Counted from the first letter of the stretch, positions 6,114 to 63,860 are shown. The stretch is 64,000 nt of DNA from Candidatus Woesearchaeota archaeon (GCA_964359725.1 CAYHTT010000001.1:14618-78617); one strand, 5' to 3'. Notes: a model not told the origin generated them from the letters alone. Made by a program: numbers and translations.

Positions 6114-9100
6114 TTAAAACCATTTCCCTAAACCTTCTTGTTTCTCGTCATCTTTACCAAACATACTTTCTATCCTTTGTTTTGTTAATTCTAAACTTTG
6201 CCTTAAATAAGGTGGTAAATCAAATTTCTCTGCTAAATCTAATGTTGGTTGTAAATATTTAACAATAAAACCTTCTGCAACTGTAAATATTATCCTTCCT
6301 TTACATTTTAAGCATTCTCCGACTAATGGTGGTCTTCTGTATTTTTCGTTGCAATTAACACATCTAAATTGTTGTGTACTAAACTTTCTTAAATTTCCCC
6401 TTATATCTCGTATGAAATGTCTTTCAATTACTAATTTTGCTACATCTACTTCGTCCACTGCACGAATTTTTTCTGCTAACTCTATTTGTCCGAGAACTTT
6501 TTCTTGCATGCTTGGAATTAATTTATATGCAGAGCATCTTACTCCTGAATTAAAATCGCTTACATCATGAGTAAATTTAAAATCATAATATTGTTTTTCT
6601 GTCCCTAATCTATCTTTTAATTGTTCTATTTTAATTTCATTGGGCCATTTATATTGTAAAGCTGCTTCATAAAGCTCTAAAGGATACTTATCAACTAAAT
6701 CTAAATCAAAAACCATATCATCTACCTCACTTGGTATTAATACAGAAGTTAGAACTAAAGGTGCATCTTGTGTCGCTCCACGATGACTTGGTAAATACTT
6801 TCTAGAAAAATTAATTAATGCGTCTAGCAAGAGCATTATGCAATTTTCATCACCTTCGCAATCCCGACGCTGTGCAGCATGCCACATTGGATGAGCAAAG
6901 CATCCTTGTGTTTTACTAAATCCAATTATCCTGCCAACTATTGCTGCGGAAGTGTGTGGCGCTAAACCAATAACTAAATGCCCTATTAAATCTTCTTTTG
7001 TTTTTGCATTGTAATATGACCCGAGATTATAGAAATTTTGTAATAAATCGTCAATAAAATTAGTCATCCTTAATAAAACAATATCTGCTCCCTCATCTGG
7101 CGATTCTTTGCAAGCTGGCAAAATTACATCACTTGGCATAATTTCAACTAACTGATCTTCATCTAATAAAGGGTTGCCATAAATATCTTGATTATAACCG
7201 AGTTCTCTTAATCTAGTTAATGAAGTGCTGATTTCTTTTGGTTTAAATGCTGTAATCGGCATCTCTGTCATATCAAAACGAATCGTGCCATCTTTATTAA
7301 CATACAAATTATGTAATGCTCTTAAAATTCCTTTAGCTAAATTTTCTGGTGTATGATCTTCATTACTTGTGCCACGAACGCCTTTTATTAAATCTGGTGC
7401 TTGCTTCAATTTTAATTTTTTTAATGCATTTTCAAAGAAATGATTTATTGATAAACTTTTTAATCCATATGGTTTTAATTCGCCATGTTTTTTACAAATA
7501 TTTGTATCATACATTAAATCACAATTTATACAATAAAATTTATTTTTTGTTTTCTTATCACAAACTTCACATATTTTGTAAATAGTGTCAATATTGCAAT
7601 TCCCACAATAATAAATAGGAAATTCTGCTATAACTTTACCATGTTCTAATGCTGATTGGAAACTTCTTAATTTACCACCTTCATCTCCAACTGGAAATAA
7701 AACATGAGGACTTCCAGTTAATTTTCTTATCTTAGCTTTTTCAGGACGTCCCATTCTCGCTCCTATGAAAGTTCCAGACTTATCTCTAATAATTGCTTTA
7801 CATGTTGCGTTTAATATCTCAAGAACATTTTCTTTATCTAATTTTAAATCAAAATCATTCAATGTAAATAATAATGCTCTAGCATCATCTTCTTTTATAA
7901 TTACTTCATTGTTTTTAACATAATGTGGCAAGCCAATTAACTCTAGTACACGCTTAGTATCTACATCTTTCAAATCTAAATTAATTTCATAAACTAATGG
8001 TAATATTATTTCATTACCTTTAACTTTGCCTTTTTCCAACCAATTTAATAAACTCAAGAATTGATGTTTATTAATATCATTCCAATGATAGGTATAACGC
8101 GAATGTAACGGAACTTTATATAGTAAAGAAATTTCTTTTGCAATATCAAAATTAATTTTTGTAATTGGATTTTTAAATAAATTAATCAAAAAATCCTCTT
8201 CTATACCTAAATCTACTGCAATCTTACTTAAATCGAGTTTTCCATACTTATTAATAATAGCTTTTTCAAATTCTCTTAACCACCATTCCTCACAATATCC
8301 TGCAGGTACTAAAAAATGAGCCCTATTATAGAATTCACCATAATTAATTAAAATATCTCCTAAAAATAAAATTTCCTCTACTTCATCTTTTACTTGTTTG
8401 GCTTGTTCTTCTGTTTCTACAAAAATTACACTTTGATCTTTTAATTTGATAATAGGACCTTCAATAGTATCGCAAAGTGCAATTGCAGTAGATTTTCCAG
8501 GACGCTCATACCTTAATTGAGTTCCTGTTGCAATATAATTTTTTAATAAATGCATTGTTGCAGGATGTATGCTTAAGCTGCTTAATCCAGAAACTCTGCT
8601 TCTACCATATCTTAGTCTAAATCCGCCTACACGTAAAGGGTGTGTCAAAACAGGTCTTCCCGCAACTAAATCTTTGATATAAGTAAAATCTGGTTTTAAT
8701 TTCTGTTCTGTTTTAGTTTCCTCTTTAATTTCACGCGCTTTAATCTTTTTTTGTAATTTTAAAAAATCTCCCAAAAAAGTCCAATCTTCTAACTCATATT
8801 CCTTGTAAAATTTATTTATTCTTCCAAAAAATTTAGGTGCTTTTTGGCAAAGAGCTTCTCCCATGACTAAACAAAAACCATTTCTTAATCTATTAGTTTC
8901 TATTCTTGGAATATCTTTATAATTTGAAACGTCCCATTTCTCACTTGGATCACCATCAATCTGTAATGGTAAATTTCTCATCATAAATTCTATTTCTTCT
9001 TCACTCGGTAAATATTGTAAATTGGTAACTTTTTCATGATAATCATATAATTCAACAATTGCTCTTCTAACTTCGTCTTCTGTAGGATCGTATTTATAAT

Positions 9101-9620
9101 AACCAAATTTTTTTCTTATATAATCTGCTACTAAAATACTCCCGCATGTTATAGTTGTTCCCGCACTTCTTATTGGACCAGAGAACATTAAGCAGAAATA
9201 TTCTTTACCATCTTTTCTTTTTTTAATTTTTAATTCTGTAAATCCCTCTAATGGGCTAGAAACAACACCATTACTCAAGTAAGCTAATCCTACCCTTATT
9301 CCAACTTCCATTGCTTCTTTTGTATTAGTAAATTTACAAAATTTTTCTTGTGCAACCTCTAAGCTAACTATTAATGCTACTCTCCAATCTAATTTTCCAT
9401 ATTTTAACTCAAGTTCTTCTATCCTAGCTACAATACCAGAATTTTTAATTTGAGGAGCAACCACGCTTATTAATCCCTCTACTCTTTCAGCCATATTTTT
9501 TGTTAATAAAATTTCTACATGATCAATGGGGTCGTAACCTAATCTTTTAGCTTGATCGGCTATCTTATATGCCTCTTCAATTTTTTCGTTCAATTCTGAA
9601 TAATATTCATTAATTTTCAT
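6114..9620 (-). CDS. polD2: DNA polymerase II (PolD) large catalytic subunit DP2
   Basis: 1168 aa. It carries the N-terminal clamp region, a central double-psi beta-barrel region, and the C-terminal Zn-binding CVNCNEKYRRPPLVGECLKCKG typical of DP2. The reading frame is uninterrupted, so there is no intein. Confidence 0.85.
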   Translation of the reverse strand: MKINEYYSELNEKIEEAYKIADQAKRLGYDPIDHVEILLTKNMAERVEGLISVVAPQIKNSGIVARIEELELKYGKLDWRVALIVSLEVAQEKFCKFTNTKEAMEVGIRVGLAYLSNGVVSSPLEGFTELKIKKRKDGKEYFCLMFSGPIRSAGTTITCGSILVADYIRKKFGYYKYDPTEDEVRRAIVELYDYHEKVTNLQYLPSEEEIEFMMRNLPLQIDGDPSEKWDVSNYKDIPRIETNRLRNGFCLVMGEALCQKAPKFFGRINKFYKEYELEDWTFLGDFLKLQKKIKAREIKEETKTEQKLKPDFTYIKDLVAGRPVLTHPLRVGGFRLRYGRSRVSGLSSLSIHPATMHLLKNYIATGTQLRYERPGKSTAIALCDTIEGPIIKLKDQSVIFVETEEQAKQVKDEVEEILFLGDILINYGEFYNRAHFLVPAGYCEEWWLREFEKAIINKYGKLDLSKIAVDLGIEEDFLINLFKNPITKINFDIAKEISLLYKVPLHSRYTYHWNDINKHQFLSLLNWLEKGKVKGNEIILPLVYEINLDLKDVDTKRVLELIGLPHYVKNNEVIIKEDDARALLFTLNDFDLKLDKENVLEILNATCKAIIRDKSGTFIGARMGRPEKAKIRKLTGSPHVLFPVGDEGGKLRSFQSALEHGKVIAEFPIYYCGNCNIDTIYKICEVCDKKTKNKFYCINCDLMYDTNICKKHGELKPYGLKSLSINHFFENALKKLKLKQAPDLIKGVRGTSNEDHTPENLAKGILRALHNLYVNKDGTIRFDMTEMPITAFKPKEISTSLTRLRELGYNQDIYGNPLLDEDQLVEIMPSDVILPACKESPDEGADIVLLRMTNFIDDLLQNFYNLGSYYNAKTKEDLIGHLVIGLAPHTSAAIVGRIIGFSKTQGCFAHPMWHAAQRRDCEGDENCIMLLLDALINFSRKYLPSHRGATQDAPLVLTSVLIPSEVDDMVFDLDLVDKYPLELYEAALQYKWPNEIKIEQLKDRLGTEKQYYDFKFTHDVSDFNSGVRCSAYKLIPSMQEKVLGQIELAEKIRAVDEVDVAKLVIERHFIRDIRGNLRKFSTQQFRCVNCNEKYRRPPLVGECLKCKGRIIFTVAEGFIVKYLQPTLDLAEKFDLPPYLRQSLELTKQRIESMFGKDDEKQEGLGKWF

Positions 9621-11233
9621 ATTTCATTAAAATTTAGTATTTTCACATCTCTTGTTTTTAAATTAACCAAAACAGCTTTACAAGGATCTGGTACTATACC
9701 ACGTCTTTTTTGATCTTCTGTTTGATCTATCCAGGCGCTACAATTTATTGTTGTAACACCGTGATAATTGTCTACTTTAGTTTTATGTAAATGTCCACTA
9801 ATGAAGAAATCTGGAATTTTCTCAATTAACAAAGGATCTTCATCTGGATTTGGTAAATATAATGTAGCTGTGTGGCTTGGTGCAAGATGTCTGCGTTGTA
9901 ATAAAAATTTCATTATTAAATCTGGTCTTTCGGTTCTTCCAGCTCTTCTTATACTTTCAACGTTCTCAACAATATAAAAAAAACTTGAGCCGTGATAAAT
10001 TAAAATATTAAATCCTGAAAAATCTTTTGTCGATGCTATATTAACTAAACTTGGGTTAGTGGCCATAATAACATTTGAAAATTCGTATAATAAAGGTGCC
10101 ATCTTTTTATCTGGAAATGGTTGTGGCTCAGCTAATCTAACTGCATCATGATTGCCCACACTTAGAATTATCTTAATGTCTTTTCTTATTCTTGCAAGAT
10201 ATTCTGCTAATTTTTCATATTGCTTGTAAATATCTAATATTGCTAAATCATATTCCTGATCGGGGTAAACCCCAACGCCATCCACCAAATCACCCGGAAT
10301 AAATAAATATTTTACTCTCTTTGCTATTTCGCGTTGTTCTTTATTTCCATAATTTCCATTAATCCAATCAATAAACTTTAAGAAATTTTTTTCAAAAAAT
10401 ACTTTATTTCCAACTTGTAAATCAGAGGTAAAAGCAACATACTCTTCATTTGGACCTTTTTTAAGTTCATTGTTTAATGATATATCTGGCAAGAAAATTT
10501 CATTAACAAAAATTATTCTATCACCATTATAACCCGTAACTCCAATTACTTCATCAAAAATAATGTCATTTGCTAATTCAAACAGCTCTTTTCTTGATTT
10601 ATTTATAACAACATTAATTAAACCAGTAGGGTCTTCTAATGTTATTAAAATATTACCATTTTTTGTTATTCTTTTATCATTTACTAAACCGATTATTGCT
10701 ATAGTTTCTCGTTCAGATCTATTTAATGCTCTGTTTATTGAGACTGCATTTTGTAATTCCTGTCTTTTTAATAAAATATTTTTTAAAAAATTATAACGAA
10801 TTTTAAAATAATCAATAAAATCTTGAACTTCTCTTTTCTTATCTTTATCAACATAATTCTTTAAAATAATTACATTACCACCGTTACCCTCTTCAAGCTC
10901 GATTTCTATTTTTGGTTCTCCTTGTCCTTCTTCAAAAATTTCATTATTATTAAAATCTTGTTTTAATATATCTAAAAAGAGATTATAAGTTTTATTTTCT
11001 TTATTTTTCTCGGCAAGTACCCGAGCTCTGTCGAATTCCTGCCAATTTATATTAGCTGGGTTATTATCTTGATTTAATATTTCAAAAACATCTTCATTTA
11101 TTACCAAAGGTTTATTTTTAAGCTTATTAAAATTTTTTATAACCTCCTTTATATCAATATTTTCAAGTTTTTCAATTAATTTTGGGCTTACTAAATAGCC
11201 CTCTTTAATAAAATACTCAATTAAATCCTTCAT
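9617..11233 (-). CDS. polD1: DNA polymerase II (PolD) small subunit DP1 (Mre11-like phosphoesterase)
   Basis: 538 aa with calcineurin-like phosphoesterase motifs (FIPGDLVDGVG, GNHD, GHLH). It overlaps the DP2 start by 4 nt, as in DP1-DP2 operons. Confidence 0.85.
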   Translation of the reverse strand: MKDLIEYFIKEGYLVSPKLIEKLENIDIKEVIKNFNKLKNKPLVINEDVFEILNQDNNPANINWQEFDRARVLAEKNKENKTYNLFLDILKQDFNNNEIFEEGQGEPKIEIELEEGNGGNVIILKNYVDKDKKREVQDFIDYFKIRYNFLKNILLKRQELQNAVSINRALNRSERETIAIIGLVNDKRITKNGNILITLEDPTGLINVVINKSRKELFELANDIIFDEVIGVTGYNGDRIIFVNEIFLPDISLNNELKKGPNEEYVAFTSDLQVGNKVFFEKNFLKFIDWINGNYGNKEQREIAKRVKYLFIPGDLVDGVGVYPDQEYDLAILDIYKQYEKLAEYLARIRKDIKIILSVGNHDAVRLAEPQPFPDKKMAPLLYEFSNVIMATNPSLVNIASTKDFSGFNILIYHGSSFFYIVENVESIRRAGRTERPDLIMKFLLQRRHLAPSHTATLYLPNPDEDPLLIEKIPDFFISGHLHKTKVDNYHGVTTINCSAWIDQTEDQKRRGIVPDPCKAVLVNLKTRDVKILNFNEI

Positions 11234-12432
11234 AATCCTAATCCTTCTTTCAATGTTTCCTTTATTTTTGGAAATGTAGAAGGGTGTATTGCTAACTCAA
11301 TTTCTCGGGTTCTTCCATATCTGCCTTTAGAAATTACTTTTGTGTTAATAATCCCAAGCATATCAAACTCTGCTATGATATCAGAAACTCTTCTTTGGGT
11401 TAATGGTTTAATATTAAGTTCATGACAAGTTTTTTTATAAAAGTCGTAAGTTTCTCCTGTAAATACTTTATTATCTTTATCAGAAACATTCAATATACTA
11501 TATAAAGTAATTTGGAATTGTTTTGGTTGTGTTCTTACTGCATCTAAAATCCTGTCATGTTCGATTTTCTCGTCAGCCTCATCAATATGTTCTATTCTAA
11601 TTTTTGGTTGGTTTTTCCTTTCTGCTAATTCCCCTGCTACTCTAAGCAATTCTAAAGCTCGTCTGGCATCACCATGTTCACGAGCTGCATAGGCTGCGCA
11701 TTTCTCAATCACACCATCTTCAACAAAGCTATCCCTAAAAGCTAGTTTAGCTCTTTGTCTCAAAATATCTTGAAGTTGTATTGCGTTATAAGGCGGGAAT
11801 ATTAATTCTTCCTCGCTCAAACTAGACTTTATTCTGGGATCAAGATTATCTATAAACATTAAATCATTCGAAATACCAATCAAAGACATCTCACATTTTT
11901 TTAATTCTGAGTTTAGCCTAGTTAAATTATATAATATTCCATCTCCTGTTTTTGTAACTAGTTGATCAATCTCATCTAAAACTAAGATAACAAGTTGCTT
12001 TTCATTATCTATTGCATCAATAAATATTTTATAAATTTCTTCTGTCGGCAGGCCTGTAGCTGGAACCTCCTTACCAAATGATCTTGCTAATTGGGCTATT
12101 AATCTGTATTCTGTATCAGCTACCTTTTTTAATTTACAATTTAGATAAGCATACTTTAATTTCAAATTTTTTTTGTTAATAATTTTAATAATTTGATCCA
12201 TTACATGTTGTGTTACACATGTCTTTCCTGTTCCGGTTTTACCATAAATAAAAACATTACTTGGTTTTTCATTTCTTAATGCGGGTGCTAATATACTTGC
12301 AAGTTGTTCGATTTGTTCGTCTCTATGTGGAATAGTATCTGGGGTATAATTACTTTGTAATGCTTTTTTATTAACAAATATAGATTTCTTTTCAAGATAC
12401 GTTTCAAAAAATTTAGATAATTTTTCCCCCAT
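11230..12432 (-). CDS. cdc6: Orc1/Cdc6 replication initiator
   Basis: 400 aa with AAA+ Walker A (GKTGTGKTCV), Walker B (LVLDEID) and a C-terminal winged-helix region. It overlaps the DP1 start by 4 nt. Confidence 0.85.
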   Translation of the reverse strand: MGEKLSKFFETYLEKKSIFVNKKALQSNYTPDTIPHRDEQIEQLASILAPALRNEKPSNVFIYGKTGTGKTCVTQHVMDQIIKIINKKNLKLKYAYLNCKLKKVADTEYRLIAQLARSFGKEVPATGLPTEEIYKIFIDAIDNEKQLVILVLDEIDQLVTKTGDGILYNLTRLNSELKKCEMSLIGISNDLMFIDNLDPRIKSSLSEEELIFPPYNAIQLQDILRQRAKLAFRDSFVEDGVIEKCAAYAAREHGDARRALELLRVAGELAERKNQPKIRIEHIDEADEKIEHDRILDAVRTQPKQFQITLYSILNVSDKDNKVFTGETYDFYKKTCHELNIKPLTQRRVSDIIAEFDMLGIINTKVISKGRYGRTREIELAIHPSTFPKIKETLKEGLGL

Positions 12433-13300
12433 TTTGAAAACTTATGAAAACTAAGCTGATATTTAAACATTCTTATAATAAAATATACAAACCATGACCT
12501 ATATTTCATATGGAACATATTTTTCATGTTAGAAACCTTTGTTTCATGTAGACTTAAAAAGAATAATATATAATAAAAAATATATTTTTAAATAATATAT
12601 AAAATAATTTAGAAAAATTTAAATAATAATATATAAATAAAAAATATAAAAGTGTAAAATTCTTAATATATAAGCCTTAAAAAGGCAAATTTTAATTTCT
12701 TTATTTTTAAAATTACAAAATATTTTTATCGACGATGAGCTAAATTTAATTAAAATTATTTTATTTATAAATCAAAGCTTATTTTGAACTCCAAAAGAAA
12801 TTCCAAGCTTATTTTGTTTCCATCCGCAATAAAGGTGTCTGGGTGTTAGAGAAAATTATAATCCAACCTTCCTTAACATTATACCATTTCTATAAAAATT
12901 TATAGAAGGTTTAACGTAAATATCTACTTTTGATATTCCCTAATCTCAACAGGCGTTTGTATATAAGATTCAAGTTTTATTTTTTTATCTGATTCATGTA
13001 TGGTTGCCACACAAATTCCAAAAGATTTACCTTCAGAATAAAATAACAACACCCTCTCCTTTTTGATTGGGAGAAGAAATACCAACGAGTTCTATTTTAT
13101 TTCTTATAACAAAACCTTCTAATATTTTAAGATTTTTTTCTATTATTTTACATTCAACCATTTTCTAAAAATTAATAATTAGATTTTATATTACCCATAC
13201 TAAAATATATAAAATTATAAAATTTTTCACAAAACCCTCGAATAACACAAAGTTTATAAATAAGTTGTTACTTTAAGATTAATATTGAGGTAAAACAAAA
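12433..13300. promoter_or_regulatory. Candidate replication origin (oriC) region upstream of orc1/cdc6
   Basis: This 868-bp non-coding region is the longest intergenic gap in the window. It sits directly upstream of the cdc6-DP1-DP2 operon, which is the oriC position in Pyrococcus-type archaea. It contains an extremely AT-rich block (about 12551-12720) and short repeated TTTCATRT/GAAAAC elements. Confidence 0.45.
12504..12550. repeat. Three direct TTTCAT(R)T repeats at 18-20 bp spacing (possible degenerate mini-ORB elements)
   Basis: TTTCATATGGAAC (12504), TTTCATGTTAGAAAC (12522) and TTTCATGTAGAC (12542). An inverted GTTTTCAT-type copy (ATGAAAAC) lies at 12444-12451. Confidence 0.35.
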
Positions 13301-13301
13301 A

Positions 13302-13568
13302 ATGGCAGAGGAAGAGAAAAAATACAATTCAAGACAAATACTAGGGAAGCTCATCGTTACAAAAACAGGCAAACGTTTTGGTGAAGTCGGTGATTTAACA
13401 TTCGAGACTAAAACTGGAGAATTAATTCATGTTGTTGTTAAAAACCCAACTGGCTATTGTGAAGGTTTAGAACTCGAGAAAGATAAATCGGGAAATCCAT
13501 TAATACCATATTCAGCTGTTATTGCTGTAGGCGACTTTATTGTAGTCGCAGAAGAAGAAATAATTTAA
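13302..13568 (+). CDS. PRC-barrel domain protein
   Basis: 88 aa. The GKLIVTKTGKRFGEVGDLTFETKTGELIHVVV pattern is typical of archaeal PRC-barrel proteins. GAGGT lies upstream. Confidence 0.55.
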   Translation: MAEEEKKYNSRQILGKLIVTKTGKRFGEVGDLTFETKTGELIHVVVKNPTGYCEGLELEKDKSGNPLIPYSAVIAVGDFIVVAEEEII

Positions 13569-16282: not shown

Positions 16283-16546
16283 ATAAATTCGTTTAATGTT
16301 TTAATTTCCTTTTCTTTTTTCTCAGCTTCAGCCCAACTTATGCCCTCTTTTTTCATTATCTTTAGAATTTTAAGCTCTTTGATCATTTTATGTTAAGATG
16401 AAAATTGTTTTTATTTAAATACATTTTTAGCTTTAAAGATATATTATAAATCATAGTTAAAGAAATATAGCTAAAAAAATGAGATTATTATTTTATAATT
16501 AAAATTTTTGAGTTAATTTTTTATATTTATTCTTGCTAATAATTCT

Positions 16547-17116
16547 ATGGACCCTGATTTTGATACTAAAATAAGAGCTTCTTTTGCAAAAGTTAGGCAA
16601 GACATACAGATTATTAAAGAAGAGATAGAAAAGCTTAAAGAAGCTTTAATTTTACAAAATAAGTCTAATTCTACCTTAAAAGAGGACGTGGGCTACCTTA
16701 AACAGCTTTCAAATGAGCTAAGAAGCAAGATTTCAACTATTTCCATCGGAAATCGTAGGGTTGATGATGACGATCAACGATCAATGACAATGAATGACAA
16801 TGCCAAACAGCTAAGATTCCTGCTAGAAAACAAGTTTAGAAGCTTAACAGACAGAGAATTTTCAGTGTTTATGGCCATTTACCAGCTCGAAGAAGAGCAA
16901 GGAACAGTTACTTACCAAGATATGGCCAATAAACTAAATATTAGTGGAAGTAACCTGAGAAATCATGTATTATCTTTAATAAATAAAGGAATTCCCGTCG
17001 GAAAAGAGCGTTTATTCAATGGAAAAACCACCTTTTTTATAAAAAAAGAGCTTCGCAACCTTAATATTGTGGCTGATCTAATTGAGTATAGACAGCATAA
17101 AACCTTTAAACAATAA
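16547..17116 (+). CDS. Coiled-coil plus C-terminal winged-HTH protein (putative regulator)
   Basis: N-terminal heptad-rich segment (IQIIKEEIEKLKEALILQ...) and a C-terminal wHTH-like segment (LTDREFSVFMAIYQLEEEQGTVTYQDMANKLNISGSNLRNHVLSLINKG). Confidence 0.45.
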   Translation: MDPDFDTKIRASFAKVRQDIQIIKEEIEKLKEALILQNKSNSTLKEDVGYLKQLSNELRSKISTISIGNRRVDDDDQRSMTMNDNAKQLRFLLENKFRSLTDREFSVFMAIYQLEEEQGTVTYQDMANKLNISGSNLRNHVLSLINKGIPVGKERLFNGKTTFFIKKELRNLNIVADLIEYRQHKTFKQ

Positions 17117-27795: not shown

Positions 27796-27883
27796 GGGCC
27801 CTTAGCTCAGTCTGGTAGAGCACTTGAATAAAATGGTGAAGCTCTTAACCAAGGGGTCGTGGGTTCAAATCCCATAGGGCCCG
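27796..27883 (+). tRNA. tRNA-Lys(CUU) with a 14-nt intron at a non-canonical position (between nt 30/31 of the anticodon stem)
   Basis: Acceptor GGGCCCT/AGGGCCC, D-arm GCTC-AGTCTGGTA-GAGC, T-arm GTGGG-TTCAAAT-CCCAT. Removing AATAAAATGGTGAA gives the anticodon arm CTTGG-CTCTTAA-CCAAG with anticodon CTT. No CCA is encoded. Confidence 0.65.
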
Positions 27884-63771: not shown

Positions 63772-63857
63772 GCCCCGGTAGCTCAGTCTGGTAGAGCACA
63801 TGGCTGTTAGAGAATGTAGAAACCATGCGGTCGTCGGTTCAAATCCGGCCTGGGGCG
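63772..63857 (+). tRNA. tRNA-Asn(GUU) with a 12-nt intron at the canonical 37/38 position
   Basis: Acceptor GCCCCGG/CTGGGGC (one G-U), the same D-arm as tRNA-Lys, anticodon stem CATGG/CCATG, and T-arm GTCGG-TTCAAAT-CCGGC. Removing GAGAATGTAGAA leaves the loop CTGTTAA. An alternative excision giving Tyr-GUA is less canonical. Confidence 0.6.
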
Positions 63858-63860
63858 CTT

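Follow-up and report, generated by a model that had tools for sequence, protein, structure and literature searches.

Analysis of a 64-kb stretch of DNA from a Candidatus Woesearchaeota archaeon (GCA_964359725.1 CAYHTT010000001.1:14618-78617; ~28% GC; hereafter the window) revealed that the 423 bp directly upstream of its orc1/cdc6 initiator gene (positions 12433-12855) very probably form a chromosomal replication origin, of the oriC1 type, of a Woesearchaeota/Nanobdellota archaeon. DPANN archaea, uncultivated and frequently host-dependent, possess reduced genomes, and to our knowledge there is no experimental information on their replication initiation. The region carries inverted origin recognition boxes (ORBs) on both sides of an AT-rich candidate duplex unwinding element (DUE, 12554-12787), stands out from the rest of the window, retains its elements and layout at the homologous position across ~45 related loci, and adjoins a gene for an ortholog of known ORB-binding initiators. 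A preliminary description of the same DNA had proposed an origin here; the conserved ORBs, a 37-fold enrichment of the ORB core upstream of cdc6, an ORB layout shared by 43 of 47 loci and the orthology of the initiator all support that call.

The ORBs surfaced solely via cross-genome alignment. An alignment of the sequence upstream of cdc6 from the window and from six close relatives (seven genomes among which Cdc6 is ~80% identical) brought out four sharply conserved blocks amid drifting AT-rich sequence, which are four copies of one motif (Table 1). The classic dyad with its G-rich tail, TTCCAnnnG(A/C)AAYnrAGGTGT, is seen in ORB-a and ORB-d. More broadly, ORB-a, ORB-b and ORB-d are assigned to yTCCAnnnG(A/C)AAYnrAGGT (ORB-b with TCTA), and ORB-c, which fits the core TCCANNNGMAAY, is the dyad core alone. 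The locus has, as is typical of oriC1, multiple ORBs with a TTCCAnnnGGAAA-like dyad core, some of them G-tailed (two full, one degenerate and one mini-ORB). Mean identity is 0.89 for ORB-a in the six relatives, 0.71 for ORB-b, which is kept in all seven aligned genomes, and 0.75 for ORB-c in the close relatives; ORB-d is kept in most of them and is degenerate in one (L001). The two pairs are mutually inverted, with their TCCA (dyad) ends toward the AT block and their G tails outward. ORB-a sits 82 bp upstream of the cdc6 start (12432) and ~25 bp beyond the cdc6 TATA box. Most related loci also have an ORB near -80 from cdc6, and in some other lineages the same strand bears another ORB, about -110 to -215 from cdc6. 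A generic repeat finder missed the ORBs, its output being mainly low-complexity AT repeats.

Part of this architecture had been glimpsed in the preliminary description, which listed TTTCATRT repeats at 12504, 12522 and 12542 on one side of the AT block. All three are present. Taken as reverse complements, the copies at 12504 and 12542 give the cores of ORB-a and ORB-b; likewise, a sequence flagged as resembling a degenerate ORB core, TTTCATATGGAAC, is ORB-a itself. The middle copy (TTTCATGT, 12522), by contrast, is neither conserved nor ORB-like, and we rejected it as an origin element. TTTCATRT occurs 17 times in the window against 17.2 expected by chance, yet three copies within 46 bp form a local cluster. 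While the cdc6-side repeats were thus partly ORBs, the far-side pair (12788-12845) had been overlooked, and an inverted ATGAAAAC/GAAAAC pair (12436-12451) had been placed on that side instead. The sequence there reads GAAAACTTATGAAAAC, a direct repeat. It falls on the cdc6 side of the AT block as well, after the TATA box and before the start codon. Being direct, unconserved (mean identity 0.47) and within the cdc6 leader, it too was rejected as an origin element.

Within the window, the ORBs are exceptional. Both strands, ~128,000 positions in all, were scored with two matrices, matrix A built from the six close relatives only and matrix B from 94 sites of distant relatives, with the close clade excluded. 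Matrix A ranks ORB-a and ORB-d first and second. Matrix B places ORB-d first (21.3 bits), ORB-a second (21.0), ORB-b fourth (12.6) and ORB-c eighteenth (3.2), and detects no second ORB cluster in this window. By chance, three of the top four matches would fall within one given 423-bp interval with a probability of about 1e-6. The core TCCANNNGMAAY has five matches in the window, with 2.3 expected, and three of these lie within 12503-12830 (Poisson P about 6e-7). Matrix B also scores the P. furiosus ORB1, ORB2 and ORB3 oligonucleotides, bound by Cdc6/Orc1 in vitro (PMC1904270), at 20.5, 18.7 and 15.5 bits, against -18 for a control oligonucleotide.

The same elements recur at the homologous position in related genomes. 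A one-genome-per-species scan yielded 57 loci (cited by L numbers) with ±5 kb flanks, the closest at ~80% amino-acid identity. Nearly all are labelled Woesearchaeota, Nanoarchaeota, Pacearchaeota, Aenigmarchaeota or Undinarchaeota, and some records of metagenome-assembled genomes (MAGs) are labelled otherwise. Across 55 DPANN loci, the core TCCANNNG[AC]AAY occurs at 3.1/kb in the 700 bp upstream of cdc6 versus 0.083/kb elsewhere, the 37-fold enrichment cited above, and ORBs recur across lineages down to ~55% Cdc6 identity. The ORB(-)/AT-rich/ORB(+) layout, scored with a matrix at >=11 bits in the 47 loci that have at least 700 bp of upstream sequence, was found in 43: an ORB on the cdc6 strand lies near -80, and an opposite-strand ORB lies further upstream. 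The inverted ORBs in most such loci enclose the 100-bp window with the lowest GC content in the 11 kb. Across loci the median inter-ORB distance is 251 bp, with an intervening GC content of mostly 10-25%. Alignment with homologous cdc6-upstream regions, a check proposed in the preliminary description, was therefore clearly positive, with ORB-like elements conserved.

As at origins of the oriC1 type, the inverted ORBs stand on both sides of an AT-rich unwinding element. The A/T block pointed out earlier is real (15 G+C in the 170 bp of 12551-12720). Among 100-bp duplexes, none in the window is less stable than positions 12549-12649 (4% GC; z about 4), and the block is also the least stable duplex at window sizes of 150 and 200 bp (z 3.7-4.1 overall). 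Inside the element, a short block (12604-12621) reaches a mean identity of 0.74, compared with 0.61 across the whole AT element, and is possibly a site for an accessory factor. It contains a half-site of the palindrome TTTCTATATAGAAA, which more distant relatives carry in the same region. With at most one mismatch, 17 of 44 related loci (including L021, L023, L027, L032, L036 and L056) have a single copy of the 14-bp palindrome TTTC(T/A)ATAT(A/T)GAAA between their ORBs; 0.06 are expected from shuffles, and there are 2 matches in 532 kb outside inter-ORB regions. The full 14-bp palindrome is absent from the window, whose clade retains just TAAATTTTTCTAttATAT at 12604-12621. We found no description of the palindrome in the literature. 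It is analogous in position to the Sulfolobus ucm and differs from it in sequence. This unwinding-region element could bind a dimeric accessory factor, ucm/UBP-like in role and not in sequence, or could be a symmetric Orc1 site.

The initiator gene adjoins the origin region, and both the elements and their layout are conserved at this position, as at oriC1-type origins. The Cdc6 protein aligns near full length with the two initiators crystallised on origin DNA, Orc1-1 of S. solfataricus (2qby_A, E 2e-114) and ORC1 of A. pernix (2v1u_A, E 8e-101). These alignments identify it as orthologous to Sulfolobus Orc1-1 and Aeropyrum ORC1, both of which bind ORBs. A second Cdc6 paralog was found nowhere else in the 64-kb window, and ORC1/Cdc6 is reported to be a single-copy core gene in Nanobdellota (bioRxiv 10.64898/2026.05.13.725050). 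The gene heads a cdc6-DP1-DP2 operon, all on the - strand, whose neighbours share 4-nt overlaps; ORFs (open reading frames) and Pfam matches bear out the coordinates, identities and overlaps previously given for it. The cdc6 promoter block GTATAAGAATGTTTAAATA is kept in seven of the seven aligned genomes, and mean identity in that alignment is 0.76 over 12455-12492 versus 0.47 over 12433-12454. From the spacing between the TATA box and the ATG, we infer a cdc6 mRNA that is leaderless or has a very short leader.

The ORF-free gap in which the origin lies (12433-13301) measures 869 bp and is the largest in the window, the runner-up being 377 bp. It had been called the largest non-coding region, which holds for the gap as the biggest free of ORFs but not for its whole length, as 12856-13161 is a decayed gene. 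The true non-coding part, the 423 bp assigned to the origin, remains the largest of the window. The decayed small gene fills about a third of the reported gap (~300 bp), lies outside the origin and is confined to the window's immediate clade. In the alignment the L003 copy is interrupted by an in-frame stop and the L010 copy is eroded, and the C-terminal ...GL* end is kept. No Pfam family matches it, and no intact homolog was present among the fetched loci.

Table 1 Features of the putative origin and its surroundings, in window coordinates (., no strand).
Feature	Position	Strand	Sequence	Basis or remarks
PolD large subunit DP2	6114-9620	-		Pfam PolC_DP2_N, central and catalytic domains
PolD small subunit DP1	9617-11233	-		Pfam Metallophos, DNA_pol_E_B
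orc1/cdc6 initiator gene	11230-12432	-		400 aa; first of the cdc6-DP1-DP2 operon; Pfam Cdc6_C, Cdc6_lid, AAA
Probable cdc6 TATA box	12460-12467	-	TTTAAATA	~30 bp 5' of ATG, inside the conserved promoter block
ORB-a, full	12492-12516	-	GTTCCATATGAAATATAGGTCATGG	Dyad core and G-rich tail; reads toward cdc6, away from the AT block
ORB-b, degenerate	12532-12553	-	GTCTACATGAAACAAAGGTTTC	TCTA replacing TCCA; oriented as ORB-a, 38 bp apart
AT-rich candidate DUE	12554-12787	.		234 bp, ~10% GC; between ORB-b and ORB-c
Conserved block in AT element	12604-12621	-	TAAATTTTTCTAAATTAT (relatives TAAATTTTTCTATTATAT)	Near-invariant columns amid drifting sequence
ORB-c, mini-ORB	12788-12805	+	ACTCCAAAAGAAATTCCA (relatives CTCCATTAGAAAT)	Without G-rich tail; reads away from the AT block
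ORB-d, full	12817-12845	+	TTTCCATCCGCAATAAAGGTGTCTGGGTG (relatives TTTCCAGAAGCAATGAAGGTGTGGG)	Opposite in orientation to ORB-a and ORB-b; distance to ORB-c 29 bp
Decayed small gene	12856-13161	-		~100 codons, at least one frameshift here; frame switch; broken in relatives too
TATA box of PRC-barrel gene promoter	13253-13262	+	TTTATAAATA	Block conserved in alignment
PRC-barrel gene	13302-13568	+		Divergent from cdc6; Pfam PRC
Isolated full ORB	16740-16763	+	TTTCCATCGGAAATCGTAGGGTTG	In HTH_11 gene 16547-17116; third by matrix B, 20.5 bits

By homology with Sulfolobus oriC1, we infer Orc1 binding, MCM loading and origin firing at this locus. Orc1/Cdc6 monomers would occupy the two flanking pairs, ORB-a/ORB-b and ORB-c/ORB-d, with a defined polarity, the winged helix sitting on the TCCAnnnGAAA dyad and the AAA+ initiator-specific motif on the G-rich tail. 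Through the inversion of the pairs, the dyad ends of both would face the 234-bp, 10% GC stretch, to which ATP-bound Orc1 would direct MCM, leading to melting and bidirectional replication. Orc1 at ORB-a may also modulate transcription of the cdc6-PolD operon, because the cdc6 TATA box follows shortly after ORB-a, and third ORBs seen elsewhere agree with this proposal. These third ORBs, on the opposite strand at -6 to -30 from cdc6 (to -52 in L018), occur in many lineages outside the window's clade (L015-L018, L022, L023, L027, L030-L037, L041), and their G tail enters the cdc6 TATA box (...GAAATnnAGGTTTATAA). A third ORB at this position looks like an autoregulatory operator.

The ORBs could accordingly be genuine Orc1/Cdc6 sites in a locus that is mainly a cdc6/PolD autoregulatory operator, or a dormant origin, with initiation occurring elsewhere or by recombination. 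We judge this unlikely, although the position of ORB-a and the third ORBs that overlap the TATA box in many related lineages are what an operator predicts, T. kodakarensis replicates without Cdc6 or oriC (PMC5663688), and haloarchaea have dormant ORB-bearing origins (Ori-Finder-Arch preprint). A promoter would have no use for the distal inverted ORB pair, which lies ~390 bp upstream, past the 234-bp spacer of 10% GC, in a layout shared by 43 of 47 loci, and autoregulation can coexist with origin function. Also against this reading are the single Orc1 of reduced DPANN genomes and a window that holds no second ORB cluster.

We regard as effectively excluded the idea that the conserved blocks belong to a non-coding RNA or to some other cis element with no link to replication. 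Some conserved intergenic blocks, including 12604-12621, do lack an assigned function, but Rfam at the gathering threshold returned just three tRNAs in the window, all outside the region, and at E up to 1 it gave zero matches within it. The blocks are explained by an inverted ORB consensus on both strands, a DNA-level pattern, and a GC content of ~10% would give little stable RNA structure. The last alternative, an ordinary AT-rich divergent promoter region with short repeats arising by chance in a 28% GC genome, can draw on the chance-level count of TTTCATRT, the unconserved GAAAAC repeat and the two promoters in the gap, but it is effectively refuted by the core enrichment, the matrix ranks (first, second and fourth with an independently trained matrix) and the 43 of 47 layouts, and it leaves unexplained the conservation across lineages, the match to bound Pyrococcus ORBs and the fact that the window's other promoter regions have neither ORBs nor comparable AT extremes.

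Several points nonetheless weigh against assigning origin function to 12433-12855. Two of the four boxes are degenerate, ORB-b with TCTA for TCCA and ORB-c without a G tail. A canonical origin sequence is not proof of use, because in T. kodakarensis the ORB-bearing origin and Cdc6 are dispensable (PMC5663688). The 234-bp spacer exceeds the ~130-bp ORB3-DUE-ORB2 unit of Sulfolobus (PMC12141716). The matrix behind the layout count was partly trained on loci that it scores, a circularity from which the regular-expression count of the core is free. Finally, cumulative GC skew has a local minimum at 12-13 kb and its window-wide minimum near 53 kb, both of which follow gene-strand switches; within the window, skew tracks gene orientation and neither supports nor refutes an origin. 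A skew minimum elsewhere had been expected to count against the origin only in combination with a lack of conserved ORBs, and since conserved ORBs were found, the call is not refuted. Gene orientation upstream of cdc6 lends it soft support only, because shared synteny contributes: the divergent strand holds 71% of upstream coding sequence, and more than 50% in 34 of 43 loci.

The putative origin combines features of two well-studied archaeal systems. Like oriC1 of Sulfolobus/Saccharolobus, the window's locus adjoins an orc1-1 gene, in this case an ortholog matching 2qby_A. The ORBs of S. islandicus (CTCCAATGGAACCGAAGGGGTGT) and those of this lineage (TTCCAnnnGAAAYnAAGGkGT) both consist of a dyad core and a G-rich tail. 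The mutagenesis oligonucleotides in the supplement of PMC12141716 allow S. islandicus oriC1 to be reconstructed as ...ACACCCCTTCGGTTCCATTGGAG-[DUE]-TCTCCAAATGAAAT..., a polarity equal to ours, with the dyad ends inward. In contrast to Sulfolobus oriC1, there are here two ORBs per side, one of them degenerate, and these are predicted from sequence. The AT stretch shares no substring with the S. islandicus M6/M7 (ucm) region (AGATAACCATTTATACAAAAG) and holds the 12604-12621 block instead. The sole long word shared with S. islandicus oriC1 is AAATCAAAGCTTATTTT (12769-12785), an exact match of 17 nt outside ucm. In both genomes it neighbours an ORB, on the DUE side and in the same orientation, and its AAGCTTATTTTG part recurs at 12805. 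It is unconserved in DPANN relatives and probably a coincidence, with a rough chance estimate of about 1e-4.

Pyrococcus and other Thermococcales have the same order of oriC, cdc6, PolD small subunit and PolD large subunit (PMC1904270), and here, too, the cdc6-dp1-dp2 operon lies directly downstream of the origin region. P. furiosus ORB1 (GTTCCAGTGGAAATGAAACTCTGGGGGG) has a core near-identical to ours and scores 20.5 bits on the DPANN matrix, and Pyrococcus likewise has an inverted ORB pair and mini-ORBs. In Pyrococcus, however, the G-run follows ~10 nt after the core, whereas here GGTGT follows 3 nt after it, as in Aeropyrum and Sulfolobus. Thermococcales carry a second ORB/mini-ORB cluster inside dp1 (PMC1904270); in the window's dp1 (9617-11233), matrix B finds no match above 4 bits. 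Instead, one isolated ORB lies in an HTH gene, 3.9 kb away on the other side.

An ORB(-)/DUE/ORB(+) arrangement is regarded as the minimal functional archaeal origin (PMC4010727; PMC12141716; Ori-Finder-Arch preprint). The locus fits both this pattern and the 'Type I, RIP-adjacent' class of Ori-Finder-Arch/DoriC. The preprint presents automated oriC annotation across archaeal phyla, Nanobdellota assemblies included, and its text makes no mention of a lineage consensus, an AT-element block or palindrome, or an intragenic ORB. Our literature search found no paper describing ORBs in DPANN archaea; 208 Nanobdellota genomes have been rotated to ORC1 without origin analysis (bioRxiv 10.64898/2026.05.13.725050). 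The class of element is well known. If the assignment is right, a woesearchaeote retains a canonical Orc1-ORB-DUE origin, with the consensus TTCCAnnnGAAAYnAAGGkGT common to Woese-, Pace-, Aenigm- and Undinarchaeota loci. Such an origin could serve as an anchor to orient and close MAGs, as a reference for coverage-based replication rates and as a source of DNA/protein pairs for in vitro work.

The intragenic ORB (16740-16763) lies 3.9 kb from ORB-d in the same orientation. It is kept in seven of seven homologous genes, inside an otherwise variable protein linker. Within it a Ser is encoded by the rare TCC (3% of Ser codons), and the tail nGG is kept while the encoded residue toggles between R and G. 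Since a rare codon is used and GG persists despite the R/G switch, selection on the DNA rather than on the protein is suggested to maintain this site. It is possibly an outlying Orc1 site with an Orc1-dependent regulatory or origin-control role. We considered a second origin at the AT-rich gap beside it (16283-16546) and rejected this, as no inverted partner ORB is present. We entertain, tentatively and with more doubt than confidence, the idea that woesearchaeal origins carry conserved parts beyond ORB-DUE-ORB, namely a recognition element in the unwinding region and the outlying ORB in the HTH gene.

The related loci yielded further observations. Extra high-scoring ORBs occur ~2.2 kb upstream of cdc6 in Pacearchaeota-like loci (L044 at -2279 and -2210, L045 at -2246, L046 at -2191 and -2114), and in L054 the entire ORB cluster is displaced to about -1.3 kb (-1462 to -1219). 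MAG contigs often stop 125-300 bp upstream of cdc6, in the AT-rich element (L005, L007, L011, L014, L019, L025, L030, L031); assembly seems to break repeatedly at the origin, whose extreme AT-richness suggests why many contigs end just upstream of cdc6. The PRC-barrel gene (85-88 aa product) is the divergent neighbour of cdc6/oriC in many Woese- and Pacearchaeota loci, and is found at the homologous position in L003, L012, L013, L038, L043-L046, L051 and L054. Elsewhere in the window, two tRNA genes predicted by ARAGORN (27796-27883 and 63772-63858) are 87-88 nt long with odd or undetermined anticodons, and may contain introns.

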